Shown here piece by piece: positions 1,590 to 27,077 of a stretch of DNA of 62,585 nt (positions are counted from its first letter, which is position 1; each line of letters begins with the position of its first letter). Below the pieces are notes generated by a model, which was not told the DNA's origin, made no database searches, and was given only the letters and a program-made list of their open reading frames with translations. Source of the DNA: a virus; the IMG/VR virus record IMGVR_UViG_3300002035_000001, positions 1-62,585 of that record. The stretch is one strand, 5' to 3'. Both the position numbers and the translations under genes were made by a program.

Positions 1590-2111
1590 ATGACGCAGGC
1601 AGAAAAATCGCATATAGACGATAAAGAGAAAGTAAATACTCAAGCCAGCCTATTTCCCGATGTTCCGGCCTTCAAGAACTTCGAGATGTTAATAGAGTTC
1701 ATATTCGCGGGCAAGGCTAGGCTCAGCATTAAGTCACGAAAGACCCAAAAACATTTTACCTTTAGGATCTATCGAATATCCGATACTGATATATTTGCAG
1801 TTAGTTTTCTGGGGGGCAATGGCCACTACCACTATCTAGGATCTATCTTTGATCGGAAGGTATTTAACAAGACTAGAAAAACCTGTTCTTATTGCCTATA
1901 CCACCCCGCCTTCGAAGCTTTCAAGTGGTTCTGGAAAAAGCTTAATGGCTATGGCAAGATACCTCAGGATGTTGAAGTGTACCATGAGAAAAGATGCGGG
2001 ATGTGCGCTAGAAGACTAACAGACCCTGTTTCCATCCAAGAAGGCTATGGCCCTGAATGTAGAAATAAGCGGTTGCGTAGACCTTTTACTAGTGATAAAG
2101 GAAGATTATGA
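1590..2111 (+). CDS. DUF6011-like protein
   Basis: C-terminal CGMCARRLTDPVSIQEGYGPEC matches the C..C..LTDP.S...G.GP.C signature as I recall it. AAGGA RBS. Confidence 0.6.
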   Translation: MTQAEKSHIDDKEKVNTQASLFPDVPAFKNFEMLIEFIFAGKARLSIKSRKTQKHFTFRIYRISDTDIFAVSFLGGNGHYHYLGSIFDRKVFNKTRKTCSYCLYHPAFEAFKWFWKKLNGYGKIPQDVEVYHEKRCGMCARRLTDPVSIQEGYGPECRNKRLRRPFTSDKGRL

Positions 2112-2617
2112 ATATATTTGCAGTATCCCGTCATCCTCGAAAATGTGCTAGAGCCTTAGATGACAAGCGATTAAATAAGATGATCCTAGAGACCGCTCAA
2201 ATACTATGCACTGTGATTAATGAGCAATCGGGTGAACAAGTAACCCCTTATCGAAGTAGCCATAAAAATCACCCTATCACTCTATGGGCATCAAGCAACG
2301 AAGACTTAGCCCCTATTAGGTGGCTATATCGGTTAGGCATTGCTTACGGGGAGGAAATAATCCACAGGCGGGATCGCAAGCATGCTTGTCATAAAGTCAT
2401 TGAGGATCTTGCTGAGCGTTGGGTTTATCTCTCTATGATTGAGGAGGATTTAACCGAAGATCAGTTCTACAACGGTGCAAGACATAAGGGGTTAGGTATT
2501 GACTATAGCCATCTTCCCGTTTTTAAGGCTTATAGAAAATACCTCAATACTCGGTGGCCTGGGGATAAGCGTAAACCTGTATGGACTAATCGAAAGCCAC
2601 CATCATGGAAACAGTAG
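2108..2617 (+). CDS. Conserved phage protein of unknown function
   Basis: ATGA overlap with the upstream gene. N-terminus MNIFAVSRHPRKCARALDDKRLNKMILETAQIL...HKNHP resembles a widespread phage and giant-virus family whose name I cannot recall. Confidence 0.6.
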   Translation: MNIFAVSRHPRKCARALDDKRLNKMILETAQILCTVINEQSGEQVTPYRSSHKNHPITLWASSNEDLAPIRWLYRLGIAYGEEIIHRRDRKHACHKVIEDLAERWVYLSMIEEDLTEDQFYNGARHKGLGIDYSHLPVFKAYRKYLNTRWPGDKRKPVWTNRKPPSWKQ

Positions 2618-3422: not shown

Positions 3423-4229
3423 ATGAATGTAAGTATAGTAAAAGACAGTATAAGTGAAGCAGGTGTTAGAATAACCACTTTTCATCTAAGGTACTGGAGA
3501 GCAATCCACTCAGAGCTAATGACTCATAGGGTATTTAGTAGAAATGCTCGATCCTCGAGAGCAGTTCCGGTGGCAACACTATTAAGCGAAGACAAGTTTA
3601 TCCCCCAGTTTGGTCTTAACAAGCCGGGGATGCAATCGACTGAGACTCCTAGCCCCGAGCTTCAAGCTAAATGGGAAAAAGAGTGGAACGAGCTTAGTGA
3701 TATTACTCGGGAGTATGTTAAGGCTTGGGGAGAAGAGGGTATGCACAAACAGCATGCTAATAGGCCTCTTGAGTGGTTTGGGTGGATTGATGTCCTAGTT
3801 ACTTCAACCTATTGGGATAATTTTTATGGACTACGTATCGATAGCTATGCCCAGCCGGAATTTGAAGAGTTAGCTACACTGATGCGGGCTGAGCAGAAGG
3901 GGTCTCATCCTCAATTACTCAAGCCCGGTCAATGGCATCTACCTTATATAACAGAAGATGACTTTAATCTATATCAACTCGAGCAGTTACAGAAACTATC
4001 AACTGCCCGGTGTGCTAGACTAAGTTATAGACCCTTTGATGGTCAGGATAGCTATGAAGCTGAGATGAGTAGGTATGAGAGGTTGGTAGTAAGTCAACCA
4101 GTCCATGCTTCCCCCGCAGAACATCAAGCAACTCCTCTAACCCAAGGGCAGGAAGGTAATACGGGTAATTTTCATGGATGGGTTCAGTACAGAAAGCTTC
4201 TTGACGATGAAGCTATTATGGAGAACTAG
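3423..4229 (+). CDS. thyX: Flavin-dependent thymidylate synthase ThyX-like
   Basis: THRVFSRNARSSRA matches the ThyX signature RHRxxSxxxxSxR except at the first residue. ASPAEH lies near the C-terminus. Confidence 0.75.
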   Translation: MNVSIVKDSISEAGVRITTFHLRYWRAIHSELMTHRVFSRNARSSRAVPVATLLSEDKFIPQFGLNKPGMQSTETPSPELQAKWEKEWNELSDITREYVKAWGEEGMHKQHANRPLEWFGWIDVLVTSTYWDNFYGLRIDSYAQPEFEELATLMRAEQKGSHPQLLKPGQWHLPYITEDDFNLYQLEQLQKLSTARCARLSYRPFDGQDSYEAEMSRYERLVVSQPVHASPAEHQATPLTQGQEGNTGNFHGWVQYRKLLDDEAIMEN

Positions 4230-4670: not shown

Positions 4671-5012
4671 ATGATGGCGCGTAAATGGAAAGGATTAAGA
4701 AAGTTAGCCGAGGAAGCAGGAGAGCTGGTAGTTGAATTGATGAAGCTCGATGCTTTTCCTACGGGCAACCATCCGGGACGTAAACGTAACGTGAAATTAT
4801 CTGTTGAGGATGAGATAGCAGACGTGCTAGCAGCAGCAGAGTACTTTATAGACAGGCATAAACTAGACAGGACCCGTATAGAAAAACGAAAGTATGTAAA
4901 ATACCGTAAATTCGTAGGCTGGTATGGTCAAATCAAGAAGCCTTCTGTAAAGCCTGTCAAGAAGACATCAAAAAAGTCGCCTAAGGCAAAGAAATCATCA
5001 AATAACGCATAG
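4671..5012 (+). CDS. MazG-like nucleotide pyrophosphohydrolase with a Lys-rich tail
   Basis: KLAEEAGELVVEL...VEDEIADVLAAAEYF pattern typical of small MazG domains. AGGAG RBS. Confidence 0.6.
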   Translation: MMARKWKGLRKLAEEAGELVVELMKLDAFPTGNHPGRKRNVKLSVEDEIADVLAAAEYFIDRHKLDRTRIEKRKYVKYRKFVGWYGQIKKPSVKPVKKTSKKSPKAKKSSNNA

Positions 5013-6270: not shown

Positions 6271-7167
6271 TTAATCTGTGATGTCCCAGCCGGGCCTTAG
6301 GTCAATAAAGTTGGGATGACGAGGCTTATCCTTCTCCCCTACCTTCTGTTTCTTGCACTTCATTATTGCGCGGGCTTCCACCAACTCATCTCTTTGAAGC
6401 CAGAAGGACTTTCTCTGCTCAGCCGTAAATCCTCCGCCAACTCGGATCTCGACTTTATCCTTGAGGGTAAGGCCGATGAAGCCTCCAAGTGTCCCTTTTG
6501 GCTTTTTCCCTTTTTTCGATGACGACCTTTTGAGCTTCCCTGTCTTTTCCCTCTTCGCTTCATTGGTATTCTCCATCTCTTCGTAGTAACCAATAATGAT
6601 AGCTTCAAAATCTTCAAAAGGCTTTACCTTAAGCATCCCCTGTTGATTAAGAGTAGACTTACCTTGCTTATATTCTGCATCAGGATCCCGAGTAATAATA
6701 CCTTCAAAACCTCTCTCCAGGCACTCCTTAATATATTCTTCCAAATCCCAAAGATTATAGATTAACCGATACTCTAATGCTCTGATCCGAGGATTACCTG
6801 AAAGTCTAACTAACAGAGGAACATTATTAAGCCGGTCTATATAAGATTGCTGAGGCTCAAAGGTATCAAAGGCATAAAGATACCAATCAGGATCACCTTC
6901 TCGAGAGGTTAATCCACTCGAGGTCCGCTGCAGAACGCCTTTAGTGTTATATGCTCCACAGACGGCTTCAGTGTCTAAGATGCCCCGGGAAGGTAAGATG
7001 CCCCGGGTCTGAGACATAAAAGACTTGTTGGGAAATTCTGATAGCCGCGAAGTGTTAGCCCTGTGGGATAGGATACACCTAAACCCATCAATCTTAGGCA
7101 TAGCAATACAAGGAAATCTAACTAAGGTTAAGTCATCAACCTGGGCACCTTTCATAGGCCTCTTCAT
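6271..7167 (-). CDS. ATP-dependent DNA ligase
   Basis: Motif I KIDGFR, EGIITRD (motif IV-like) and LKVKPF (motif V-like). Confidence 0.85.
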   Translation of the reverse strand: MKRPMKGAQVDDLTLVRFPCIAMPKIDGFRCILSHRANTSRLSEFPNKSFMSQTRGILPSRGILDTEAVCGAYNTKGVLQRTSSGLTSREGDPDWYLYAFDTFEPQQSYIDRLNNVPLLVRLSGNPRIRALEYRLIYNLWDLEEYIKECLERGFEGIITRDPDAEYKQGKSTLNQQGMLKVKPFEDFEAIIIGYYEEMENTNEAKREKTGKLKRSSSKKGKKPKGTLGGFIGLTLKDKVEIRVGGGFTAEQRKSFWLQRDELVEARAIMKCKKQKVGEKDKPRHPNFIDLRPGWDITD

Positions 7168-18579: not shown

Positions 18580-20484
18580 TTATTCGTCGGGATCTTCTTC
18601 ATGGAGTTCCCAGGTTAGGGTCTTGTTATTACCCTTTCCTCGCTTCTTCTTTTTGATGCTCATTTTAGAAGCAGCTCTCTCTAGCATCTTGGCACTAATA
18701 CTTCGTTTCTCTGCCATCCTATACAGCTTGGCCTCATCAATAGCAGTTCCCGTGATTGTAGACTCTAGGAACTCCATGGCATCTTGGATACTGGTTCCTA
18801 CCGTTCCCTTAGACCGTGCCTCCGATGAAGCATCCATGATCTGTTGAGCGTTAAGGTCCGTAAACCCATCCCATATAAACTCAGATCTATTTTTCTTCCT
18901 ACCTTCAATCCTAAATCGGAGCCCGCGAGGAACAGGAGCAAGGTTATTCTTGGTCATTGCCATTACTCGAGTCTCGGTGTCCTCGGGATCAACTCCCACT
19001 GACATAACCATACGGGCAGTACCGGTAAAGCTGATCGATCCTTGTCCTCGATACATTGCAGGGCCTGAGCCTTTAGTAAGGTGACGAATAACAAGAACAG
19101 CACAATTAAAGTCTTTAGCAAGATCTCTAAATAAGTTCATTGCTTGAGTAGACTCTGAGCCTTTATGGGTATCAGCTTTACCAATATAGGCATTAAGAGT
19201 ATCAAATACGATAAGTGCTGGTTTAATATCTTCAAGGTATTCATAGATCTCCTCAATAGCATCCTCATCATCGATACTAAAGGCTTGCTCGATAGGATAG
19301 TAGTTTCCTAAGTCATCAAACCCGTTATATGTCAATCGGACCTTTGTAACAGATGCTGCATTGTTTTCTATATCAAAATATACAACGGGGCCCTTAACCC
19401 TCTTTTGTCCTTTTCGAGGACAGGGAAGCTTTGACCCCTTAGCAATGGATCCTGCAACAATCATAGCTAAGTAGGACTTGCCTAGTCCAGGATCTCCCTC
19501 AAGTATCGATAGCTCCTTTCTAGCCAAGAAGGGATACCATACCCAGTCCGTTTCTTCTTCCTCAATGTCCTTCATTGCCTTAAAGATAAACCTTCCCTTA
19601 GGTTCCTTCTCATCCTCAGACTCCTCTTGGTCCGACTTCCTGTGTCTCTTATCAGCACCTTTAGGCTTTTCTCGAAACTGGTTTTCTATTACTTTCTGTA
19701 ATTCTCGACGCAGTTGGCTTTCCTCAGTTCTTCGGCCAGCAAACTTATTCCAAGCAGACCTTTTAATAACAGCAAACGCTTCGTCGAGACTCATTCCTGC
19801 TTCTACGCAAGCATTCTCTAGCTTCCACAGCATCTCTGATCGGTCAGCTCTTCCCTTAACCCGTTTGGCAACAAGTTCTCTCCTGACCCACCTAGGTAGC
19901 TTGTCCTGGTATTGCTCAAACACCTCCGCCGCTGATAATATCTCGCCACCCTCTTCTTCTTCCTCTTCGGGAAGGTATTTCTCCATCTTCTTAACAGAGT
20001 ACTTCGGTCCGTCGGTCCACAAGGGTCTTACTTTAGGTGCAGATTTATACTTAAAGTTCTTGGTCCCCGGAAACCTTAATACCTGAGTTAAGTCCCACCC
20101 CCCGTGGTCTGCCTCGACCATGTAAGTAAGTCTGCGGTTCATCGACTCGGTCATCGGGCCCTTTAGAACCCAGAGGCCGACAAACCTGCCGGGGGAAGAC
20201 TCTATAGCTATAGTAGGCTTAGGCTTCATGTTCTTGGGATCAGCAAAGTCAAGGTCCGCCCACAGTAGGTTGGGTATTACCGCCTCGGACTTCTGTCTTA
20301 CTCTTCTATTAAATCCATGAGGACAGAAGTAGATATCGCAATCATCATTGTCTCTTAAGAACTTCTTAATCTTCCCGAAGTCCTCAGGGGCAAAGAAATG
20401 ATCCTTCCATTTTCCACCCCCGTCTTTAGTTGATATGCAGAAGAACTTCCCTGGTTGCTTCGACCATATATCTGTAATTAGCAC
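18580..20484 (-). CDS. Bifunctional primase(-polymerase)/RepA-DnaB-like helicase
   Basis: The N-terminal half has an acidic LWADLDF motif (AEP/prim-pol-like). The C-terminal half has Walker A GDPGLGKS and Walker B ALIVFDT. GTG start after GGGAG. Confidence 0.8.
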   Translation of the reverse strand: MLITDIWSKQPGKFFCISTKDGGGKWKDHFFAPEDFGKIKKFLRDNDDCDIYFCPHGFNRRVRQKSEAVIPNLLWADLDFADPKNMKPKPTIAIESSPGRFVGLWVLKGPMTESMNRRLTYMVEADHGGWDLTQVLRFPGTKNFKYKSAPKVRPLWTDGPKYSVKKMEKYLPEEEEEEGGEILSAAEVFEQYQDKLPRWVRRELVAKRVKGRADRSEMLWKLENACVEAGMSLDEAFAVIKRSAWNKFAGRRTEESQLRRELQKVIENQFREKPKGADKRHRKSDQEESEDEKEPKGRFIFKAMKDIEEEETDWVWYPFLARKELSILEGDPGLGKSYLAMIVAGSIAKGSKLPCPRKGQKRVKGPVVYFDIENNAASVTKVRLTYNGFDDLGNYYPIEQAFSIDDEDAIEEIYEYLEDIKPALIVFDTLNAYIGKADTHKGSESTQAMNLFRDLAKDFNCAVLVIRHLTKGSGPAMYRGQGSISFTGTARMVMSVGVDPEDTETRVMAMTKNNLAPVPRGLRFRIEGRKKNRSEFIWDGFTDLNAQQIMDASSEARSKGTVGTSIQDAMEFLESTITGTAIDEAKLYRMAEKRSISAKMLERAASKMSIKKKKRGKGNNKTLTWELHEEDPDE

Positions 20485-20657
20485 TAAGCTTGCTCCCTTT
20501 TAATTCGCTCTACCTCAGCTACTGGGATAAGCTTCATTCTTCCTAATGTCTCTGCTTCGACAGTACCCCTGTGGATACGCTGCAACAAAGTCTTGTACTC
20601 AAGCCCGGTTTCAGCTGCAGCAGCTTTTACCGAATAGAAATCTTCTAGTCTTTTCAC
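20484..20657 (-). CDS. Small excisionase/MerR-like HTH protein
   Basis: YSVKAAAAETGLEYKTLLQRIHRGTVEAE...KLIPVAEVERI. Start moved to GTG 20657 because the ORF-track TTG at 20717 lies upstream of the predicted -10. Confidence 0.5.
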   Translation of the reverse strand: MKRLEDFYSVKAAAAETGLEYKTLLQRIHRGTVEAETLGRMKLIPVAEVERIKREQA

Positions 20658-20670
20658 GAATAACCCCCGG

Positions 20671-20722
20671 TTGACAACGGCGTAGAACTCGGAATATAAC
20701 GCTGTTTGTCGACTCAAGTCAA
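20671..20722. promoter_or_regulatory. Mirror-symmetric divergent promoter pair sharing one -10 region
   Basis: TTGACA-17 nt-ATATAA-17 nt-AGTCAA. This reads TTGACA..TATAAC on the plus strand and TTGACT..TATATT on the minus strand. Confidence 0.5.
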
Positions 20723-20737
20723 CCGCGGAGTATTTCT

Positions 20738-21229
20738 ATGATTGTAATTGAAGGTATGGATAATTCTGGTAAGAGTACATTGGCTCAATCAATGGCTTCT
20801 TATTTTAAGTTAATGGTGCAAGAAAGCGAAGGACCGCCACGTAGTGATGAAGAGATTAACGAGCGCGTTGATCGCTACGAAAACATGGAGGATCGCCTCT
20901 TTGTCAGGCACCCGGTTATATCTAATCAAATCTACGGAGCAGTAAGAGAAGAGGGAAACCCCATTACTCCTGGTCGACGTATTATTTTCTACGAGCAAGA
21001 GCCCACGCTTATATACTGTGATGCAGGCGATAGGGGCCTAGGGGGTCATGTCGAAAAGGACCATGATACCAAAGAACACCTTGAAGACGTTAATAATAAC
21101 TATGCAGAGCTACTTGAGCTCTACCGTCTTTGGGCCTCAGAGCATGCTCACTTTATTTACCGTATCGGCGATGATATGGACCAGTTCATTGCTACTGTAT
21201 ATTTCTACGAGCAATATAAAAACGCCTAA
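20738..21229 (+). CDS. P-loop deoxynucleoside-monophosphate kinase-like protein
   Basis: IEGMDNSGKST Walker A, as in dTMP/dNMP kinases; about 160 aa. Confidence 0.6.
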   Translation: MIVIEGMDNSGKSTLAQSMASYFKLMVQESEGPPRSDEEINERVDRYENMEDRLFVRHPVISNQIYGAVREEGNPITPGRRIIFYEQEPTLIYCDAGDRGLGGHVEKDHDTKEHLEDVNNNYAELLELYRLWASEHAHFIYRIGDDMDQFIATVYFYEQYKNA

Positions 21230-21243
21230 ATGAAAGGAAGATT

Positions 21244-22134
21244 ATGAAACCCACCCACCAGCATGCTGACGGGGGCCTCTATCGCTATGAGGGTCCTCAG
21301 TCTGCGAAACACCCCGATAATAACGAATGGATTGCGGGTATCCAGTACGTAGGAGAAGACGGCAAGTCTCGATGGACTACTAAGTCTCGATGGGACAAGA
21401 GGTTCAAGCAACTACCGGAATTCGAGCCTGTGGACCAGCAACTGATAGACGCAACGGACGAAGAGGGTAATGTTATAGCCTCCTTTAGTTTTGAGGTGGA
21501 GCAGGCGGGTGACGTTAGGTATATGCTTATTAAGGCTGCAGAACTTTGTGAGAAGAAAGGGGATCACTATCTTGCTGCAGTAATCAAGTCTCAGTCTGAG
21601 ATGGTTACACAAGGGCTTCATATTCGCTTTTCCGACTTCCCTGATATGATCGGGGATGTTAATGCCTTTCATGCTAAATTCGGCCAGGAGTATACAGGAA
21701 AGATCCGGATGCTTCCTCGGGACCTACACGAGTTTAGAACAAAGTTCCATGATGAGGAGACGGGCGAGTATTCACAGGAGTATGAGAACTTGGTGGACGC
21801 TGTTACTCGACAAGATCGCCGGGACATCATCAATGCTCTGGAACTTCAACTTGACGCCCTGGTGGATGCCGCTTGGGTAATACTAGGAACAGCGGACTTG
21901 CAATTCGGTAGACAGCCCTTTATCGAGGCTTGGAGAAGGGTGGTCACAGCTAATATGGCTAAGGTCAAAAAAGAAGTCGGTGTTAACCAGGGCACTGAAG
22001 ACAGCGGCCGTGAAGAGAAGTATGATATTGTTAAGCCTGCCGGTTGGGTTGCACCGGATCACCGAGACCTAGTCCAAGATAATGGTATCTTTGATGAGCT
22101 GTTCGGTACTGTAGAGGAGAAAGCTGATGGCTAA
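21244..22134 (+). CDS. DUF1653-like N-terminus fused to a MazG/HisE-like NTP pyrophosphohydrolase domain
   Basis: C-terminal half VNAFHAKFGQ...FHDEETGEY...LDALVDAAWVILGTADL...VVTANMAKV...KPAGWVAPD is a typical phage MazG-like pattern. Confidence 0.55.
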   Translation: MKPTHQHADGGLYRYEGPQSAKHPDNNEWIAGIQYVGEDGKSRWTTKSRWDKRFKQLPEFEPVDQQLIDATDEEGNVIASFSFEVEQAGDVRYMLIKAAELCEKKGDHYLAAVIKSQSEMVTQGLHIRFSDFPDMIGDVNAFHAKFGQEYTGKIRMLPRDLHEFRTKFHDEETGEYSQEYENLVDAVTRQDRRDIINALELQLDALVDAAWVILGTADLQFGRQPFIEAWRRVVTANMAKVKKEVGVNQGTEDSGREEKYDIVKPAGWVAPDHRDLVQDNGIFDELFGTVEEKADG

Positions 22135-22321
22135 TCCCATTATGAAATTCTTTAGTCATGCCCACTTACCCGATCACCTGAAAAAGGTATCCCGTCCTGT
22201 AGCAGAGCTTGCTACTGAAATGGAGGAGACTCTCCCCGACGGCCCAGAAAAGTCAGCGGGCATGAGGAAGTTACTGGAGGCAAAGGACTGCTTTGTCCGT
22301 GCTCGATTAGAGGAAGATTAG
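22127..22321 (+). CDS. Small hypothetical protein (64 aa)
   Basis: Overlaps the upstream stop; lies within the coupled operon. Confidence 0.5.
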   Translation: MANPIMKFFSHAHLPDHLKKVSRPVAELATEMEETLPDGPEKSAGMRKLLEAKDCFVRARLEED

Positions 22322-22325
22322 TACC

Positions 22326-23171
22326 ATGAAGAGTGAGTGGATTAAATTCTGTCTAAGGATGGCTAAAAGGGAGGCTGACCTATACAGCGGCTGTAGGAAA
22401 ATTATCCAAGGCAAGTCTCATACCTTCTACGATCTATGGGATAAGGAGGACCCACTCACTCTAGAGGACTGTGGCTATACTAAGTCTAAGATGTCCCACT
22501 TGATGAGGGGATACTTCCATCAAGAGTCTATTGATGCCGCCTTAAAGCTATGGAAGCTAAGGAGAAGCAAAACCTCCTACGGCTCTGTGGGCTTTACCTG
22601 CTATAATCACTTTATGAAGAATGATGCTGTTAAGAAGTCTAAGAGAGCATCGGTGATGGGACCTTGTATCCAAGCGGTAACCATAACCCAGATAAAAGGA
22701 TGCACAAAGGGAGGAAAAGCAGGATCCTATAGTATTGACGTGTTCTACCGGACAACCGAGCTACTTAAGAAATTCCCCGCAGACCTGGTCTTTATTCGAG
22801 AAGTACTGTTAAAGGACTTTGACTTTAGCAATATGGAATTCCAGGGGATGACTTGCCACTTTGCTAATATAACAGTCCATCCTCAGTACTTTGTTACTGC
22901 TATCCCTCATCTAAAGGATCCTCTAAAAGAGATGGATAAGATCCGAGACAAAGACCCCTATTTCTATAACTGGATAATAAAGTGGTCTGCTCGGTATCTC
23001 TGTGAAGAACACTATCGAGGCATCGCTAAGTTTGCTCAAGCTCTTAGGGTTAAAATGGATGCCGACAAAAGGATAAAAGGAAAGCCCCGTAAAAAACTTA
23101 TCAAATACCTAAGAAAAAACCATCCCGGCCATACCAAGGCCTATGAAGATCCTGAAGGAGAACAAGAATGA
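22326..23171 (+). CDS. Highly divergent ThyA-fold protein (activity unknown)
   Basis: SVMGPCIQ (Pro-Cys nucleophile context), then YRTTE 28 residues later in place of RSCD, FPAD with Asp at the N177-equivalent position, and HFANITVHPQY in place of DxHxY. Confidence 0.5.
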   Translation: MKSEWIKFCLRMAKREADLYSGCRKIIQGKSHTFYDLWDKEDPLTLEDCGYTKSKMSHLMRGYFHQESIDAALKLWKLRRSKTSYGSVGFTCYNHFMKNDAVKKSKRASVMGPCIQAVTITQIKGCTKGGKAGSYSIDVFYRTTELLKKFPADLVFIREVLLKDFDFSNMEFQGMTCHFANITVHPQYFVTAIPHLKDPLKEMDKIRDKDPYFYNWIIKWSARYLCEEHYRGIAKFAQALRVKMDADKRIKGKPRKKLIKYLRKNHPGHTKAYEDPEGEQE

Positions 23172-24055
23172 GAACAGTAGAGTTTGATAGTTTTAATGCC
23201 GCAATCGACCAGGCGGCTATACAGCTCCAGCACCGAAGTAAACTGGTCCACAGTGCTCGTTGGCAGGGAGCTGACATTAGCAGTAAACCCGAGATGGCTA
23301 CTCATGAGTTAACTCACGCTAGTTTTTCGGTGTCCTTGTCGGATGCTCGTACCGTTAATCCTGACCTTATACTTAGTCACTTAAGAAAGGACATAAGACC
23401 TAATTTACCTTGGGCGGATGACCACTTTGAGGAGAGAGTATGCGGAAGTCCTATTAACCCAGGAAGGGAGTGGGAAAATTGGCCTTTTGCTAAGTCTGCT
23501 TCTACCTTTTTAGATGAGCGGGGAAAGTTTAACCATAACTATATGGAGAGGTATTGGCCTAAGTTTGCTGGGGTAGTTAAGCATCCTACCCCCGACTATT
23601 CAGACCACGACGAGAGGTTAACTTATCTCGATAAACAGAAGGCGGATCAAGGCGGGATAAGTCCGCACCGGGGTATACTATATGATTATGGAGATTTGAA
23701 TGACGTTATCCAACTTCTTGCTACCGATCCCTATACCCGCCAAGCTTATCTTCCAATGTGGTTTCCTGAGGACACCGGCGGGGGAAGCAAGCGCGCACCG
23801 TGCACTATTGGGTACCACTTCCTTATGCGAGATGGACTACTTGATATCAACTACCATATCCGAAGCTGCGATTTCGTTCGGCATTTCCGCGACGACCTCT
23901 ACCTTACAGTCCGCCTCCTCCTGTGGGTCATCGACCAAGCAGCTAAAAGAGATAATAGATGGGCCGACGTTCGACCCGGTAAGTTTATCATGCAAATCGG
24001 CTCGCTCCATATCTTCAGAAATGATTACCAAATGCTATTCGGGAAGGCAAAGTAA
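23168..24055 (+). CDS. Deoxypyrimidine-monophosphate hydroxymethylase/ThyA-family enzyme, T4 gp42-like
   Basis: DPYTRQ, APCT nucleophile, IRSCD exactly 20 aa after the Cys, FRDD (Asp at the specificity position) and GSLHIFRNDY. Confidence 0.75.
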   Translation: MRTVEFDSFNAAIDQAAIQLQHRSKLVHSARWQGADISSKPEMATHELTHASFSVSLSDARTVNPDLILSHLRKDIRPNLPWADDHFEERVCGSPINPGREWENWPFAKSASTFLDERGKFNHNYMERYWPKFAGVVKHPTPDYSDHDERLTYLDKQKADQGGISPHRGILYDYGDLNDVIQLLATDPYTRQAYLPMWFPEDTGGGSKRAPCTIGYHFLMRDGLLDINYHIRSCDFVRHFRDDLYLTVRLLLWVIDQAAKRDNRWADVRPGKFIMQIGSLHIFRNDYQMLFGKAK

Positions 24056-24528
24056 TGGGACGTATAAGTAGAGAGGTTATGTTTATGCAGATGGCAAGAG
24101 TAGCGTCTTGTCGATCCACTTGCTTTCGCCTAAACGTAGGAGCTATTATTACTCGCAACCACCGGCCCGTAAGCGTAGGATGGAACGGCGCACCTTCTGG
24201 CGATCCCCACTGTGCGGGAAACAGTTGCCCAGGGATAGTACCGGGCAAGTGCGGTACTCTTCATGCTGAAGCTAATGCCATAGACAACGCGATGGGGATA
24301 GAGGCTTGTGACGAAGGATGGAATTTATATGTTACCCACAGCCCGTGCGAGAGGTGTGCAGAAAAGATACGAGATTGCGGGACTATAAGTAAAGTATTCT
24401 TTGAAGTACCCTATCGGAAGCCCGATGCTTTATATATTCTCCAGAAAGCGGGAATAGCGGTTTACGAAGTTACTGCTGCAGGATATGTTATAGAATACTT
24501 TTCCCGAGAGGTAGTTGACCTTCCATGA
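24055..24528 (+). CDS. dCMP deaminase (ComEB/Cd family)
   Basis: Zinc motifs LHAEANAI and SPCERCAEKI. Confidence 0.85.
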   Translation: MGRISREVMFMQMARVASCRSTCFRLNVGAIITRNHRPVSVGWNGAPSGDPHCAGNSCPGIVPGKCGTLHAEANAIDNAMGIEACDEGWNLYVTHSPCERCAEKIRDCGTISKVFFEVPYRKPDALYILQKAGIAVYEVTAAGYVIEYFSREVVDLP

Positions 24529-27077
24529 GTAAAAAGAAGATAATGGTGATTGGTGAAAGTCCTCGAATTAACCCGAGGGCAAAATCCATCCTCTATGATG
24601 CTATGAATAGTGTCGGTATAGAAGAGGACGACTTTCGGTGGATAGATGTTCTCGAAGAAGCTCCTCCTGAGGGAAAGAACATTACTAAGACCATGATAAA
24701 GAATGCTAGGGAAGCATTTCTCCAAAAGGTAAATAAGAAAAAACCTGAGTACATTGTTCTATTGGGTAATACTCCTTGTCAGGCTCTTCTAGAACTTACC
24801 GGCATCAGAAAGCTCCGAGGGAAGCCTGTAGAAAAAGATGGTAGAATAGTACTACCCATCCTTCATCCCAACCAAGCCCTCCATGATGATAAGTGGATAG
24901 ATATTATAGAAGGAGACCTGAGACGACTAAAGGAGTGTATGGAGTTTGGCGGGATCCCGGAGGAGAAAGAGCTTGACTTTGAGATTGTTGATACCGATAA
25001 AAAGGTAAAAGCTATGCTAAAGGACCTCTCAGGTACCGTTGCTATTGACCTTGAGACCAGTAGACTATACCCCTTCACTACTTTATTGGACGAGCTTGTT
25101 GCCTCCGGTCGTGCTTCACAGGATGCCATAAAGCAGCACAAGAGTACCCACAGCGGTAATCAGCCTCGAGTTGTAGCTATGCAGTTCGGTACTAGGAAGA
25201 AGCAATGGGTTGTTCCCATGGAGACTGCGGGCATTTGGAAAAAGGCTAAGCTAAAAAAGATTGTTAAGGCCTGCTCTCGAAAGTTAAAGAAGTGCTTCAC
25301 AGTATTCCACAACGGGAAGTTCGACTGCCTGTGGATGCTTACTCGGTTCGGTGTTAAGTGGAAGATTGACTTCGATACCATGCTAGCCCACTATCTCTTG
25401 GATGAAAATGACAGGCACGGCTTAAAGTACTTAGCTCAGAAATACCTAGGAGCCCCTGATTGGGATATCGACGGTGGTGTAAAGAATTCCTGGTCCAATG
25501 CTAATGCCAAGTATGCTGCCCATGATGTTTTCTATACAAGAAAGCTAAGGTTTATTCTTAAGAAGATGCTCGAGGATGACTATGACGTTAAAAGGGTTCA
25601 TGATAAGATAATGGTACCCTGTATCGAGATGTTTATAGAGGCGGAGCATAAGGGTGTTTATATAAACCTTGACAAGATGGATGATGCTGAGACCTATCTA
25701 AGAGAGGAGTTATCTACCGCCCTCAATAACCTTGAGAAGTGGTCGGGAAAAGCGAAGTTGGTAGATAAGAAAACAGGTAAAATAAACTGGGGGTCACCTA
25801 AGCAATTGGGGGATCTTCTTTTCAACGTACTAAAAATACCCAGTGTTGAAAAGACAGCAAGTGGAGCAGATAGTGTTAGCGAGTCCGTTTTACTCAGGAT
25901 CGACCATCCCATGGTTGGCGATCTTCTCAAGTTCAGGGCTGCACAGAAGCAGCTCTCCTCATTCATCGAAGGTTGGCGACCTTACCTTGACACTGAAGGA
26001 CGCCTCCATCCAGTATTCAAACTCCACGGTACCGTTACCGGGAGACTTAGTTGTGAGCATCCCAATCTACAACAGGTTCCCCGAGACCCGCGTATTAGAA
26101 CGCTTATTACGGCCCCTGAAGGATGGACCATGGTCGAGATGGATCTCAGCCAGATCGAGCTGCGCGTTGCGGCAGAGTTGGCAGACGAGCACAATATGCT
26201 TCACGCCTTCAACACGGGAGTGGACGTTCACTGGCTCACTGCAATTAGAGAGATAGAACGCGGCGCAGGATATAAGAAAGAAATGATAAAAACTGTTAAG
26301 CGGGCATCGGGTAAAAAGATGTCTTATTCCGAAGCAGTCGAGTATATCCTTGAACTAGGCCCAGGCCCCGCCGAGAAGCTCATGAACCTGTGGAAAGAAC
26401 TAAGGAAAAAGGCTAAAGCAATTAACTTCGGATATCTATACGGAATGTGGTGGAAGAAGTTTAAGATATATGCCCGAGACAACTATGGAGTTGATGTTAC
26501 AGATGACCAAGCTCAGGCAAGTAGGGAAGCCTTCTTTGAACTCTACCCTAAGTTTCCTAAGTGGCACGAGAAGCAAAGAAGGTTTGCTCAGGTGAATGGC
26601 TACGTTAGGTCTCTGAGCGGTCGTAAACGTCGATTACCTAAAGCGATGGCGGGACGCGATAGCCCAGAGCGACGTGAGGCGCAACGTCAGGCGATTAATA
26701 GTCCTGTTCAATCGTTTGCTAACGAGTTAAACCTAATGGCAGCCTTACAGATGCGCGAGGAATTTAATGCTGACTGGTTCAGATTAGTAGGGACCGTTCA
26801 TGACGCGGTACTTCTAGAAGTAAGGAATGATAAAGTAGAAGAAGTCTTCCATAGGGGACTTGAGATTATGGCGGCACCCGAGCTATTGAAAGTATTTGAA
26901 ATTGAGCTTAGTGTACCGATTGAAGCAGAAGGCGAACTAGGCCCGTGGGGCGCAGGAAAGGATTTAGAAACATGGCTAAAAGCTCAAAACGACAACCAAC
27001 CATTAAAGAAAAGCGAAATAGCAAGAGGCGTAAAAAGGGCAAGAAAACGAATGGAAAGCAAGAAAGCCGCGGCATAG
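24525..27077 (+). CDS. polA: Family A DNA polymerase with a 3'-5' exonuclease domain and an N-terminal degenerate UDG-like domain
   Basis: Exonuclease motifs AIDLET, HNGKFD and YAAHD. Polymerase motifs DLSQIELRVAA, RKKAKAINFGYLYG and VHDAVL. The N-terminus VIGESPR...ILHPNQ resembles family-4 UDG. Confidence 0.9.
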   Translation: MSKKKIMVIGESPRINPRAKSILYDAMNSVGIEEDDFRWIDVLEEAPPEGKNITKTMIKNAREAFLQKVNKKKPEYIVLLGNTPCQALLELTGIRKLRGKPVEKDGRIVLPILHPNQALHDDKWIDIIEGDLRRLKECMEFGGIPEEKELDFEIVDTDKKVKAMLKDLSGTVAIDLETSRLYPFTTLLDELVASGRASQDAIKQHKSTHSGNQPRVVAMQFGTRKKQWVVPMETAGIWKKAKLKKIVKACSRKLKKCFTVFHNGKFDCLWMLTRFGVKWKIDFDTMLAHYLLDENDRHGLKYLAQKYLGAPDWDIDGGVKNSWSNANAKYAAHDVFYTRKLRFILKKMLEDDYDVKRVHDKIMVPCIEMFIEAEHKGVYINLDKMDDAETYLREELSTALNNLEKWSGKAKLVDKKTGKINWGSPKQLGDLLFNVLKIPSVEKTASGADSVSESVLLRIDHPMVGDLLKFRAAQKQLSSFIEGWRPYLDTEGRLHPVFKLHGTVTGRLSCEHPNLQQVPRDPRIRTLITAPEGWTMVEMDLSQIELRVAAELADEHNMLHAFNTGVDVHWLTAIREIERGAGYKKEMIKTVKRASGKKMSYSEAVEYILELGPGPAEKLMNLWKELRKKAKAINFGYLYGMWWKKFKIYARDNYGVDVTDDQAQASREAFFELYPKFPKWHEKQRRFAQVNGYVRSLSGRKRRLPKAMAGRDSPERREAQRQAINSPVQSFANELNLMAALQMREEFNADWFRLVGTVHDAVLLEVRNDKVEEVFHRGLEIMAAPELLKVFEIELSVPIEAEGELGPWGAGKDLETWLKAQNDNQPLKKSEIARGVKRARKRMESKKAAA

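Follow-up and report, generated by a model that had tools for sequence, protein, structure and literature searches.

Homologues of thymidylate synthase (ThyA) that carry an aspartate at the position of Asn177 of the E. coli enzyme are now known to yield 5mdCMP, 5hmdCMP or 5-hydroxy-dCMP (PMC13326640), and the residue at this position acts as the switch by which ThyA takes dCMP instead of dUMP (Liu & Santi 1992 and Hardy & Nalivaika 1992, cited after PMC8670742). The T4 dCMP hydroxymethylase (dCH, gp42) lacks the tail by which ThyA seals its site for hydride transfer (PMC6400193), and in T4-like enzymes and MilA hydroxymethylation goes along with an Asp or Glu at the Leu143 position (PMC13326640). 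Genes of this type also populate neighbourhoods on cytosine-modified contigs from sewage viromes, where, according to the MetaGPA studies (Yang et al. 2021, PMC8670742; bioRxiv 10.1101/2024.12.05.627091), 70% of the dCMP deaminases have a ThyA homologue within 3 kb, compared to 6% on unmodified contigs. ThyA, PRA-PH and DNA_pol_A with its exonuclease rank highest among the neighbours of these deaminases, which is the composition of the cassette described below. The same work reports 5mdCMP as the product of five out of seven tested deaminase-linked ThyA homologues, and a preference of the linked deaminase mSCD-B5 for 5mdCTP/5hmdCTP.

The 62,585-nucleotide stretch of viral DNA analysed here, to which we refer as the window, contains a gene cassette whose neighbourhood fits the one enriched on cytosine-modified virome contigs. 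We propose, at a probability of about 60%, that this cassette constitutes a pre-replicative pathway which supplies the polymerase of the phage itself with a deoxycytidine nucleotide modified at C5.

Organization of the cassette

Seven ORFs of common orientation, which either overlap or follow each other at short distance (Table 1), make up the cassette at positions 20738-27077, in line with the operon of stop/start-coupled genes proposed by an initial sequence-only reading, whose quoted motifs IEGMDNSGKST (ORF1), HAE and PCERC (both ORF6) were all recovered. In a pattern scan of the region, promoter-like and terminator-like sites did not exceed the count in shuffled sequences.

Table 1. Coordinates and assignments of the cassette genes and of two associated genes located upstream
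Feature	Position	Strand	Length	Assignment	Junction with next ORF
ORF1	20738..21229	+	163 aa	P-loop dNMP kinase, thymidylate-kinase type	21229/21244, gap 14 nt
ORF2	21244..22134	+	296 aa	all-alpha NTP pyrophosphohydrolase (MazG/PRA-PH-like), C-terminal two thirds	22134/22127, overlap 8 nt
ORF3	22127..22321	+	64 aa	small protein inserted in cassette	22321/22326, gap 4 nt
ORF4	22326..23171	+	281 aa	unannotated, very divergent ThyA-fold family	23171/23168, overlap 4 nt
ORF5	23168..24055	+	295 aa	ThyA-family enzyme, predicted to act at C5 of dCMP	24055/24055, overlap 1 nt
ORF6	24055..24528	+	157 aa	zinc-dependent dCMP-type deaminase (HAE, PCERC)	24528/24525, overlap 4 nt
ORF7	24525..27077	+	850 aa	family A DNA polymerase with 3'-5' exonuclease and N-terminal UDG-superfamily domain	
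UDG-superfamily domain of ORF7	~24537-24884	+	aa 5-120		
ThyX	3423..4229	+		flavin-dependent thymidylate synthase; separate dTMP supply, no dihydrofolate made	
Second NTP pyrophosphohydrolase	4671..5012	+	113 aa	small protein	

ORF1 is weakly related to thymidylate kinases (PF02223, 9e-4, below the cut-off; TIGR00041, 5e-4; phrog_761, 9e-9), contains the P-loop VIEGMDNSGKST and occupies a position at which phages of Yersinia, Gordonia, Mycobacterium and Streptomyces carry a gene labelled 'thymidylate kinase'. We propose that it may act as the kinase for modified dCMP. The assignment of ORF2 as pyrophosphohydrolase comes from PHROG only (phrog_671, 7e-17, aa 129-278), with no match in Pfam and no meaningful match in a sequence search of the PDB, and it concerns the part of the protein that follows about 100 N-terminal residues whose type was not recognised; the DUF1653 domain previously ascribed to ORF2 was not confirmed, with no Pfam match even at E<=10. 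A homologue in related contigs faintly matches PF01503 (PRA-PH) and homologues in relatives are annotated as dUTPase; the protein is proposed as a putative dCTP/dUTP-clearing enzyme. The roles of ORF1 and ORF2 as analogues of T4 gp1 and gp56 are putative and derive from similarity at the level of the family only. ORF3 is present as had been noted, but it is a promiscuous insert outside the conserved cassette: its family (phrog_1761, 7.5e-31) has relatives in 375 phage records, with up to 71% identity in unrelated Vibrio, Erwinia, Acinetobacter and Mycobacterium phages. It is missing at the same position in L007/L008 and in Strzyga, a relative infecting Brevundimonas, and the small ORFs of Strzyga, L007/L008 or Gordonia phages show no similarity to it.

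The identities of the remaining genes are reflected in profile matches. These concern the deaminase ORF6 (PF00383, 7e-19; phrog_174, 1e-39; TIGR02571, 2.5e-26), which shares 34% identity with the Xp12 deaminase over 106 residues, and the polymerase ORF7 (PF00476, 1.6e-74; PF01612, 1e-20; PF03167, 4e-8), where the strings VIGESP and ILHPN resemble motifs of UDG family 4. The identity of ThyX, the separate supply of dTMP, is likewise supported by matches to Thy1 (PF02511, 1.3e-8, 35 bits at a cut-off of 24.8) and TIGR02170 (1.7e-11) and by the motif THRVFSRNARSSRA, and the protein belongs to the N4 gp30-like ThyX family with 1035 phage records. The second MazG-type gene matches phrog_4856 (1.3e-10), with Pfam MazG reaching only 0.034, below the cut-off. 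Among about 45 ORFs subjected to profile scans, no glycosyl-, methyl- or amino-acyl-transferase was recognised, as had been stated before, and the same scans revealed neither arabinosyl- or other glycosyltransferases nor NDP-sugar genes, nor a DHFR gene in the window. A DNA ligase with two MetaGPA-flagged Pfam families is encoded elsewhere in the genome.

The two ThyA-fold proteins

ORF5 scores 33 bits against PF00303 (cut-off 24.3) and at best 26 bits against the ThyA equivalogs of NCBIfam, thus missing all of their cut-offs (108-327). Its nucleophile Cys212, part of an APC motif, is located 20 residues before Arg232 of the RSCD motif (Arg232-Ser-Cys-Asp235), and Asp243 is found 8 residues after Asp235, which upon counting reproduces the spacing reported earlier; the strings PCTIGYHFLMRDGLLDINYHIRSCD, FRDD and GSLHIFRNDY are likewise contained in the translation. 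MAFFT alignments with E. coli ThyA (a sequence identical to PDB 1aob) place Asp243 at the Asn177 position, and in the best sequence match within the PDB, the N229D mutant of L. casei TS, the second Asp of FRDD falls on the mutated residue, so that both agree on the presence of an Asp at the specificity switch. Further features include Thr213 at the position of His147, as in T4 gp42, Arg209 at the position of Leu143, and the absence of the whole C-terminal tail of ThyA. The clade of ORF5 comprises 147 phage records, and in its close homologues the Asp at +8 and an Arg three residues ahead of the Cys are found in 120/120 cases, the Cys is followed by Thr (117/120) or Ser (3/120), and a median of 11 residues remains after SLHxF (n=120). 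The Asp at the Asn177 position is also present in the homologues from Gordonia and Clostridium phages. Because of this Asp, the missing tail and the NCBIfam scores, the analysis supports the prediction that ORF5 differs from an ordinary ThyA that methylates dUMP.

As regards the C5 chemistry of ORF5, methylase, hydroxymethylase and hydroxylase relatives are not told apart by overall scores of sequence or fold. Its AF2 model (pLDDT 82.8) matches 1njc, MilA, a flavin dCMP hydroxylase and T4 dCH in Foldseek, and the likeness to T4 dCMP hydroxymethylase that had been noted holds at the level of motifs but not in the overall score, which is nearer to L. casei ThyA (3e-6 versus 0.0096). We regard a hydroxymethylase as the most likely prediction. 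A function as 5-hydroxy-dCMP synthase was rejected, as Asp169 is kept as Asp235 and the D169N signature is thus absent (cf. PMC13326640). Other positions do not favour hydroxymethylation: the invariant Arg at the Leu143 position differs from the Asp/Glu of hydroxymethylating T4-like enzymes and MilA, the Trp83 position is occupied by Trp as in ThyA, in place of the Val of T4 gp42, and the alignments are ambiguous as to which residue corresponds to the catalytic Glu58.

ORF4 has no sequence match in Pfam, NCBIfam or the PDB, and its family is without annotation in Pfam, PHROGs and BFVD. The ThyA fold assigned to it was nevertheless borne out by an AF2 model (pLDDT 86.9, pTM 0.84), for which the best 50 Foldseek matches in the PDB are all ThyA-family proteins, headed by the dCMP hydroxylase AfhB of phage HY126 (1.6e-5); the top match in BFVD is an uncharacterized PMBT14 protein (TM 0.75-0.80). 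Tyr94, Cys146, Arg166, Asp169 and Asn177 of ThyA have their counterparts in Y63, C114, R142, E145 and D153, an Asp again occupying the Asn177 position. In 50 diverse members of the family, which counts 259 representatives at 50% identity, Y63, C114, R142 and D153 are the only invariant residues, and Glu145 is kept in 96%, a pattern that speaks for a functional active site acting on a cytosine nucleotide. The description of ORF4 as a second ThyA-fold protein is thus correct with respect to its fold but understates the retention of the catalytic Tyr/Cys/Arg/Asp set, which makes it the obvious candidate for the extra step that had been left to an 'unrecognised' gene.

Cultured phages that infect Brevundimonas, Serratia, Yersinia, Gordonia, Mycobacterium and Streptomyces show the same order of kinase, pyrophosphatase, ORF4, ORF5, usually deaminase, and PolA, and those of Clostridium show it in part; it is thus kept in phages of Proteobacteria and Actinobacteria, with the ThyA-like pair extending to those of Clostridium. 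In the loci inspected, the ORF4 homologue directly precedes that of ORF5, often with overlap, and 28/28 tblastn-positive phage records of ORF4 also carry an ORF5 homologue. Strzyga keeps ORF4, ORF5 and ThyX without an annotated deaminase, which implies that the pair is not merely half of a dTMP bypass.

Proposed pathway and competing explanations

In the proposed pathway, the thiolate of Cys212 in ORF5 would add to C6 of dCMP, with Asp243 reading and protonating the N3/N4 face of the cytosine, and the one-carbon unit of methylene-tetrahydrofolate would be moved to C5. Since ORF5 lacks the C-terminal tail of ThyA that closes the active site when hydride is transferred, water would most likely trap the exocyclic methylene intermediate and yield 5-hydroxymethyl-dCMP, which would make 5hmC the likeliest product. 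The loss of the tail and the Thr/Ser at the His147 position, both as in T4 gp42 and unlike Xp12/PaMx74, support this route. ORF1 would phosphorylate the product, with a host NDP kinase finishing the triphosphate, and ORF2 would hydrolyse dCTP (and dUTP) to the monophosphate, an activity that would feed ORF5 and at the same time keep plain C out of the DNA. ORF6 would deaminate some of the dCMP, ThyX would turn the resulting dUMP into dTMP, and the UDG-fused polymerase would copy the genome and exclude uracil. ORF4 would either be a partner subunit of ORF5 or catalyse a further step on the same nucleotide. We infer with good support that the genome contains C5-modified cytosine, and the phage would most likely swap the ordinary cytosine in its virion DNA for a chemically tagged form. 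The modification, as originally proposed, is supported by the residues of ORF5, the gene set and the MetaGPA neighbourhood.

It appears unlikely that the cassette instead follows the logic of Xp12, with ORF5 as dCMP methylase producing 5-methyl-dCMP, 5mC replacing C in the genome, and ORF6 as methyl-selective deaminase that turns part of the 5m-dC nucleotide pool into thymidine nucleotides. Such an arrangement would conform with the Asp and Trp at the Asn177 and Trp83 positions of ORF5, the similarity of ORF6 to the Xp12 deaminase and its location directly after ORF5, as in Xp12 and PaMx74. The substrate preference of mSCD-B5 and the production of 5mdCMP by five of the seven homologues tested in the MetaGPA work point in the same direction, and the latter, not being 5hmdCMP, runs against the pathway outlined above. 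However, ORF5 and PaMx74 gp52 share just 29% identity over 58 residues, the C-terminal region that is kept by the Xp12, PaMx74 and E. coli enzymes, and that ThyA needs for closure during hydride transfer, is missing, and the His147 position carries Thr instead of Pro. Moreover, both 5mC phages encode a DHFR beside the enzyme, for which no equivalent was found here, the separate ThyX would make a route from 5mC to T needless, and Strzyga dispenses with an annotated deaminase altogether.

We consider it quite unlikely that ORF4 and ORF5, working one after the other or as a heterodimer, generate a cytosine C5 derivative other than 5mC, 5hmC and 5hoC, for instance by a nucleotide-level hypermodification where the Cys of ORF4 re-activates 5hm-dCMP and swaps the hydroxyl for another nucleophile. 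The tight linkage of both genes, the conserved active site residues of ORF4, its absence from annotated families and the lack of a recognised post-replicative transferase in the window would all accommodate such a function. Yet the sequence points to neither a co-substrate nor a product, no fusion of both proteins was found among the 150 representatives listed of 259, and the hhalign comparison of ORF4 with ThyA, although pairing Y63, C114, R142 and D153 with their counterparts, is marginal (E 1.1e-3, probability 21%). The Arg79-Arg80 pair, a possible complement to the single Arg of ORF5, is not kept family-wide, and ORF4 could also be a non-catalytic partner with retained ligand-binding residues. 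Finally, we regard it as very improbable that the virion DNA is canonical and the cassette serves only to keep pyrimidine pools in balance, for instance by opening a second path to dTMP via dCMP. The cultured relatives are all annotated simply as 'thymidylate synthase', and the literature searched contains no reports of odd restriction or sequencing behaviour in them and no nucleoside or restriction data for phages with the cassette. The strong avoidance of C/G-containing palindromes such as GTAC and CCGG in the genome also favours canonical DNA and would not be expected if all cytosines were protected. In contrast, the close homologues of ORF5 invariably carry Asp at the Asn177 position, ThyX already provides dTMP, both here and in Strzyga, any 5-substituted dCMP accepted by a kinase would enter the DNA, and the MetaGPA studies describe strong enrichment of neighbourhoods with ThyA (Asp177), deaminase, PRA-PH and PolA on modified contigs.

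Relation to described systems

The 5-hydroxy-dCMP synthases RB69 gp48, DLP3 gp80 and HY126 AfhB (PMC13326640) share with ORF5 the ThyA fold, the Cys nucleophile and the Asp at the Asn177 position, and AfhB shows the highest target-normalised TM among the listed matches of ORF5 (0.67-0.69). The D169N exchange of these flavin-dependent enzymes is absent in both proteins of the cassette, where the position is held by Asp235 in ORF5 and Glu145 in ORF4, and the glycosyltransferase and NDP-sugar genes of their systems were not found among the scanned ORFs. The MetaGPA neighbourhoods share a set of Pfam domains within a few kb, consisting of Thymidylat_synt (Asp177), dCMP_cyt_deam_1/MafB19-deam, PRA-PH, DNA_pol_A and DNA_pol_A_exo1, although those studies concern the co-occurrence of domains and not the ORF5 clade specifically. 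The carbamoyltransferase characterised in them is absent here, and their passages on these neighbourhoods do not mention a protein of the ORF4 type, which contains no Pfam domain and would be missed by a screen based on Pfam.

Xp12 and PaMx74, with their hydrolase, ThyA homologue, dCMP deaminase and DHFR, resemble the cassette in the Asp at the Asn177 position, in the hydrolase-type gene before and the deaminase directly after the ThyA homologue, and in a siphovirus-sized genome of about 60 kb. Their enzymes are full-length, canonical-type relatives of ThyA with Pro at the His147 position, which ORF5 is not, and that of PaMx74 has 2747 phage relatives at E<=1e-10, from which the ORF5 clade is separate. 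The regions inspected contain DHFR next to the ThyA homologue and neither an ORF4-like gene nor ThyX.

With the T4 system (gp42, gp1, gp56, cd, td), ORF5 has in common the ThyA fold, the Cys nucleophile followed by Thr, the Asp at the specificity position and the lack of the tail, as well as the company of a kinase, an all-alpha NTP pyrophosphatase, a dCMP deaminase and a separate thymidylate synthase. The E value relating it to T4 dCH is nevertheless only 0.0096, and Asp145, Val85 and the second phosphate-binding Arg of T4 are replaced by Arg, Trp and Gln. The view of a T4-like logic assembled from different parts proved apt, as the Tmk-like kinase, MazG/PRA-PH-like pyrophosphatase, dCMP deaminase and ThyX belong to non-T4 families: the kinase is not of the gp1 type found in T4, and ThyX takes the place of td. 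No glucosyltransferase was found here. The pathway genes of T4 are scattered over a genome of 169 kb, whereas those of the cassette are coupled and adjacent to PolA in a genome of about 62.6 kb. The kind of pathway is already known, and it is ORF4, the additional ThyA-fold paralogue compared to T4, that is an undescribed second enzyme of the thymidylate synthase type within it.

Cassette organization and distribution

In the best-supported reading, to which we assign by inference a probability of about 0.6, the cassette formed by ORF1 to ORF7 serves a genome containing C5-modified cytosine, following a T4-like logic with different parts. The seven co-oriented reading frames, which the sequence-only reading had proposed to form a coupled operon, were all recovered on the plus strand at the coordinates listed in the table, and each of the motif strings quoted for them is present in the translations. 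Going along the cassette, neighbouring frames are first separated by 14 nt, then overlap by 8 nt, are again separated by 4 nt and finally overlap by 4, 1 and 4 nt, and a pattern scan of the cassette region found no excess of promoter-like or terminator-like sites over shuffled sequence.

Features of the cassette and of related genes in the window
Feature	Coordinates	Strand	Assignment	Evidence
ORF1	20738-21229	+	P-loop protein, thymidylate-kinase-like (weak)	PF02223 9e-4; phrog_761 9e-9
ORF2	21244-22134	+	Nucleotide pyrophosphohydrolase (PHROG only)	phrog_671 7e-17, aa 129-278
ORF3	22127-22321	+	64-aa protein	phrog_1761
ORF4	22326-23171	+	Divergent ThyA-fold protein	
ORF5	23168-24055	+	ThyA-family protein	Pfam ThyA 33 bits (threshold 24.3)
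ORF6	24055-24528	+	dCMP-type deaminase	Profile match 7e-19
ORF7	24525-27077	+	Family A polymerase (PolA) with 3'-5' exonuclease and N-terminal UDG-superfamily domain	
UDG-superfamily domain	24537-24884	+	aa 5-120 of ORF7	PF03167 4e-8
ThyX	3423-4229		Thymidylate synthase ThyX	Thy1 35 bits; TIGR02170 1.7e-11; motif THRVFSRNARSSRA
Pyrophosphohydrolase	4671-5012		Small NTP pyrophosphohydrolase	PHROG 1.3e-10
Primase/helicase	18580-20484 and 20484-20717	-	Primase/AAA_25 helicase fusion gene	
-10/-35-like site	20722-20693	-	Best such site on the minus strand	
Glycosylase	2108-2617		T4 endonuclease V-like pyrimidine-dimer DNA glycosylase	PF03013 6e-7
Ligase	6271-7167	-	ATP-dependent DNA ligase	PF01068; PF14743

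The separate ThyX is genuine as judged by its family and motif matches. The supposed second MazG held up as a small NTP pyrophosphohydrolase but not as a member of the Pfam MazG family, to which it matches at 0.034 only; the NTP-pyrophosphohydrolase PHROGs include both this protein and ORF2. A DUF1653 domain at the N-terminus of ORF2 was not reproduced, the isolated N-terminus showing no Pfam match even at E≤10. A sequence search of ORF2 against the PDB gave spurious matches only, and its homolog is labelled dUTPase in relatives. In a pre-replicative pathway of the T4 kind, either pyrophosphohydrolase would be a candidate for keeping dCTP out, and the Tmk-like ORF1 a candidate for the kinase that accepts the modified dNMP. 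The strings VIGESP and ILHPN in the UDG domain of ORF7 resemble what we take to be motifs A and B of UDG family 4. Active UDG domains fused to phage PolA were described in phages with modified pyrimidines (SPO1-like, SP-15 and YerA41) in a 2025 preprint. The primase/helicase gene is divergent from the cassette, with start codons only about 20 nt apart, and the minus-strand -10/-35-like site overlaps this short spacer.

Phage records with an ORF5-type gene number 147, and those with an ORF4-type gene, as far as tblastn detects it, number 28. All of these 28 also contain an ORF5 match, and the ORF4-type gene is located directly upstream of its partner in every locus inspected. A 305-aa protein in this upstream position in Gordonia phage Yummy, which is beyond the reach of BLAST, carries ORF4-like Cys/Arg/Asp motifs. 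The order helicase/primase, kinase, pyrophosphatase, ORF4, ORF5, deaminase, PolA and Cas4-like nuclease recurs in Yersinia phage P744, Gordonia phage Yummy, Mycobacterium phage FF47, Streptomyces phage Zuko and uncultured 64.7-kb relatives, and at least the pair of ORF4-like and ThyA-like genes is present in Clostridium phage P21. Among cultured phages, Strzyga and Polewnik of Brevundimonas are the closest relatives, their ORF5 being 57% identical. Strzyga contains the kinase, pyrophosphatase, ORF4, ORF5, PolA and ThyX but no annotated deaminase, and the corresponding position in its record (vB_BpoS-Strzyga, ON529867.1, 32489-32931) holds a gap of about 300 nt and a 150-nt ORF. The deaminase thus seems dispensable for the role of the ThyA-like pair, which argues that this pair is not merely one half of a bypass from dCMP to dTMP.

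ORF3 was rejected as a subunit of the cassette, since the small ORFs of relatives are dissimilar and its own family is widespread in unrelated phages. The family is present in 375 phage records, with copies of 60-71% identity in unrelated Vibrio, Erwinia (jumbo), Acinetobacter, Mycobacterium and Brevibacterium phages. As relatives lack ORF3 at the corresponding position, it is an insert and no component of the cassette. Its family looks horizontally mobile, and its conservation is unusually high for a protein of undescribed function.

ORF5 and its predicted product

The ThyA fold proposed for ORF4 and ORF5 was borne out by Foldseek, in which all of the best 50 PDB matches of either protein are ThyA-family proteins, out of 396 matches at E≤1e-3 in the case of ORF5. 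Within ORF5, the nucleophile Cys212 precedes Arg232 by 20 residues and Asp235 precedes Asp243 by eight, as had been claimed. Its best PDB sequence match is the N229D mutant of L. casei thymidylate synthase, rather than T4 gp42 (a dCMP hydroxymethylase, dCH), whose supposed overall likeness to ORF5 was not confirmed. The second Asp of the FRDD string aligns on the mutated residue, and the alignment of an Asp to the position of Asn177 (E. coli ThyA numbering) is upheld against both the L. casei mutant and E. coli ThyA.

The key residues were compared in an alignment of E. coli ThyA (identical to PDB 1aob), T4 gp42, the ThyA homologs of the 5mC phages Xp12 and PaMx74 and the ORF5 homologs of five cultured phages. 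Invariant are Trp61, Trp80, Tyr94, Pro123, Arg126, Cys146, Arg166, Ser167, Asp169, Gly197 and His207, and position 177 is Asn in E. coli only and Asp in every other sequence. Among 120 listed ORF5 homologs, this Asp is found in all, as is an Arg three residues before the Cys at the position of Leu143 (Arg209 in ORF5), and the residue after the Cys, corresponding to His147, is Thr in 117 and Ser in three. A median of 11 residues separates their SLHxF motif from the C-terminus, compared to about 55 in E. coli ThyA. The best score against NCBIfam ThyA equivalogs is 26 bits at cut-offs of 108-327, and a firm placement of ORF5 in ordinary dUMP-methylating ThyA, which the sequence-only reading had named as a refutation of its own proposal, thus does not occur. 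With its Asp at position 177, its missing C-terminal tail and these low scores, we reject ORF5 as a canonical dUMP-methylating enzyme.

In one ORF5 homolog of 387 aa (P0217, from a 1577-bp contig), about 95 additional residues are inserted in frame. They split the conserved FLDERGKFNHNYMERYW region and carry a LAGLIDADG-like motif (LAAMVDADGSF), which suggests an intein or else a homing-endonuclease domain that became inserted.

ThyA homologs of the Asp177 type have been described to yield 5-methyl-, 5-hydroxymethyl- or 5-hydroxy-dCMP (PMC13326640; bioRxiv 10.1101/2024.12.05.627091). For ORF5, we tentatively favour 5hmdCMP, which we rate at slightly below an even chance. Such a non-reductive outcome is favoured by the Thr at position 147, the missing tail, the failure to find a DHFR gene in the window and the assignment of dTMP synthesis to ThyX, which gives no dihydrofolate. 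T4 gp42 shares the Thr and likewise lacks the ThyA C-terminal tail, its own tail being longer than that of ORF5, and its Cys148 and Asp179, the latter conferring cytosine specificity, align with Cys212 and Asp243. Carreras, Climie and Santi are said to have found in 1992 that L. casei ThyA without its C-terminal residue makes no dTMP while its partial reactions are intact. ThyA uses this tail to seal off its active site when hydride is transferred (PMC6400193). Against hydroxymethylation stand the Arg at the position of Leu143, the Trp kept at the position of Trp83 and the counterpart of Glu58, which is ambiguous in the alignments. In dCMP hydroxymethylases of the T4 type, an acidic residue at position 143 activates the substrate water (PMC13326640; PMC6400193); this is Asp145 in T4 gp42, whereas ORF5 has Arg209 and neither Asp nor Glu.

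A methylase producing 5mdCMP would be in line with the Asp at position 177, which ORF5 shares with the enzymes of Xp12 and PaMx74. These are, however, full-length proteins of the canonical type with Pro at position 147 and an adjoining DHFR gene, whereas ORF5 has Thr and lacks the C-terminus, no DHFR gene was found in the window, and PaMx74 gp52 shows only 29% identity over 58 aa. On these sequence grounds we regard 5mdCMP as improbable, and a product other than these two would be about equally so. A flavin-dependent synthesis of 5-hydroxy-dCMP was rejected, as enzymes of this class carry D169N (PMC13326640) and ORF5 keeps Asp235, which excludes it by the diagnostic of the class itself. The Foldseek scores of MilA, T4 dCH, the flavin hydroxylase AfhB and the N229D mutant of the L. 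casei enzyme all lie between 3.5e-11 and 5e-10, and this span of about one order of magnitude does not separate methylases, hydroxymethylases and hydroxylases.

ORF4 as a second ThyA-fold protein

ORF4 has no match in Pfam (E≤0.1), NCBIfam or, by sequence, the PDB. A confident model obtained from 33 homologs (pLDDT 86.9, pTM 0.84) finds ThyA-family proteins as all of its best 50 PDB matches, led by the dCMP hydroxylase of phage HY126 at 1.6e-5. In BFVD, an uncharacterized protein of PMBT14 ranks first (TM 0.75-0.80), ahead of thymidylate synthases and dCMP hydroxymethylases. A further BFVD match, at 7e-5, is the 408-aa protein A0A8S5MQL3 of Myoviridae sp. ctOAa14, annotated with a CMP/dCMP-type deaminase domain only, which hints at a natural ThyA-like/deaminase fusion.

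An exhaustive profile search defined 259 representatives of the family at 50% identity. None of the 150 listed exceeds 334 aa; all of them are fragments or stand-alone proteins, with no ORF4-ORF5 fusion among them. When 50 diverse members are aligned, the Gordonia, Clostridium and Yersinia proteins among them, only Tyr63, Cys114, Arg142 and Asp153 are invariant, with Lys55 conserved in 98% and Glu145 in 96% (48/50). Both MAFFT and hhalign pair Tyr63, Cys114, Arg142, Asp153 and Glu145 with Tyr94, Cys146, Arg166, Asn177 and Asp169 of ThyA. The hhalign comparison of these members with a mixed ThyA alignment reaches an E-value of only 1.1e-3, and the proposed homology thus rests mainly on the predicted fold; a comparison of the ORF4 and ORF5 families from close homologs only (probability 0.1) was uninformative at an Neff of 1.6. 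We thus place ORF4, by predicted fold and motifs only, as a putative member of the ThyA superfamily.

As a pseudo-enzyme would be unlikely to retain exactly this set of Tyr, Cys, Arg and Asp, ORF4 is best read as a presumably active enzyme, or a subunit bearing an active site, acting on a cytosine nucleotide. The D169N signature of flavin-dependent 5-hydroxy-dCMP synthases is absent also here, given the Glu at this position. The idea that ORF4 donates the Arg pair missing in ORF5 (Arg191-Gln192) found no support, with Arg79 conserved in 68% and Arg80 in 10%. We consider it unlikely that the family is an active, undescribed branch which together with an ORF5-type enzyme makes a nucleotide-level cytosine derivative beyond 5mC, 5hmC and 5-hydroxyC. 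If this were true, an unrecognised DNA base would be present in more than 100 cultured phages of Gordonia, Mycobacterium, Streptomyces, Clostridium, Serratia, Pseudomonas, Yersinia and Brevundimonas, for which only a 'thymidylate synthase' is annotated. Within one of the best-studied enzyme folds, ORF4 combines a complete catalytic set with no match to a described family, and it may be a partner subunit of a new kind or perform a C5 chemistry not described before.

Proposed cytosine modification and known systems

When about 45 ORFs were scanned against Pfam and PHROG, no glycosyl-, methyl- or aminoacyl-transferase turned up, in agreement with the initial assessment, and neither did a carbamoyltransferase, a TET-like dioxygenase or DHFR; many small ORFs had no match. 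Our literature search found no nucleoside or restriction data for this phage or its relatives, the cultured ones covered being PMBT14, Serbin, Tlacuache, P744, Strzyga and the Gordonia phages. Over the whole window, GTAC (126 versus 212 expected, z -7.6) and CCGG (z -5.1) are avoided, TTATAA and TTTAAA do not occur although about 15 of each would be expected, and TCGA is in excess (z +5.1). The avoidance suggests the pressure of specific restriction systems in the host. Palindrome statistics taken as a proxy for protection point both ways: avoidance is stronger for 6-mers of A and T only (mean z -2.45) than for those containing C or G (-1.12), but GTAC and CCGG are among the strongly avoided sites.

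In the MetaGPA screens, virome DNA with modified cytosines was physically enriched. The most associated domains include ThyA, PRA-PH, dCMP deaminase and DNA ligase, and Asp177 is the top differential residue of ThyA (PMC8670742). In a later report, 70% of the deaminases on modified contigs, versus 6% on unmodified ones, had a ThyA homolog no more than 3 kb away, with ThyA, MafB19-deam, PRA-PH, DNA_pol_A and DNA_pol_A_exo1 as the five commonest neighbouring domains (bioRxiv 10.1101/2024.12.05.627091). The composition of the cassette is that of these five domains, and by this analogy the match lends indirect support to phages of its architecture carrying modified cytosine. Both Pfam families of the window's ligase are likewise listed there among those associated with cytosine-modified contigs (PMC8670742).

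Modified cytosines allow phages to evade restriction enzymes and CRISPR nucleases, and the enzymes behind them now serve as tools in epigenome sequencing. Many carriers of the cassette are easily grown, SEA-PHAGES isolates included, and are annotated there with an ordinary thymidylate synthase. The type of pathway is already known, and the cassette was in effect glimpsed statistically in the MetaGPA work; new are the conserved second family of ThyA-fold enzymes and the breadth of cultured carriers labelled 'thymidylate synthase'. Unlike in the cassette, no PolA adjoins the deaminase in Xp12 and PaMx74. With respect to T4, the cassette appears to be a compact and widely spread version of the same strategy.
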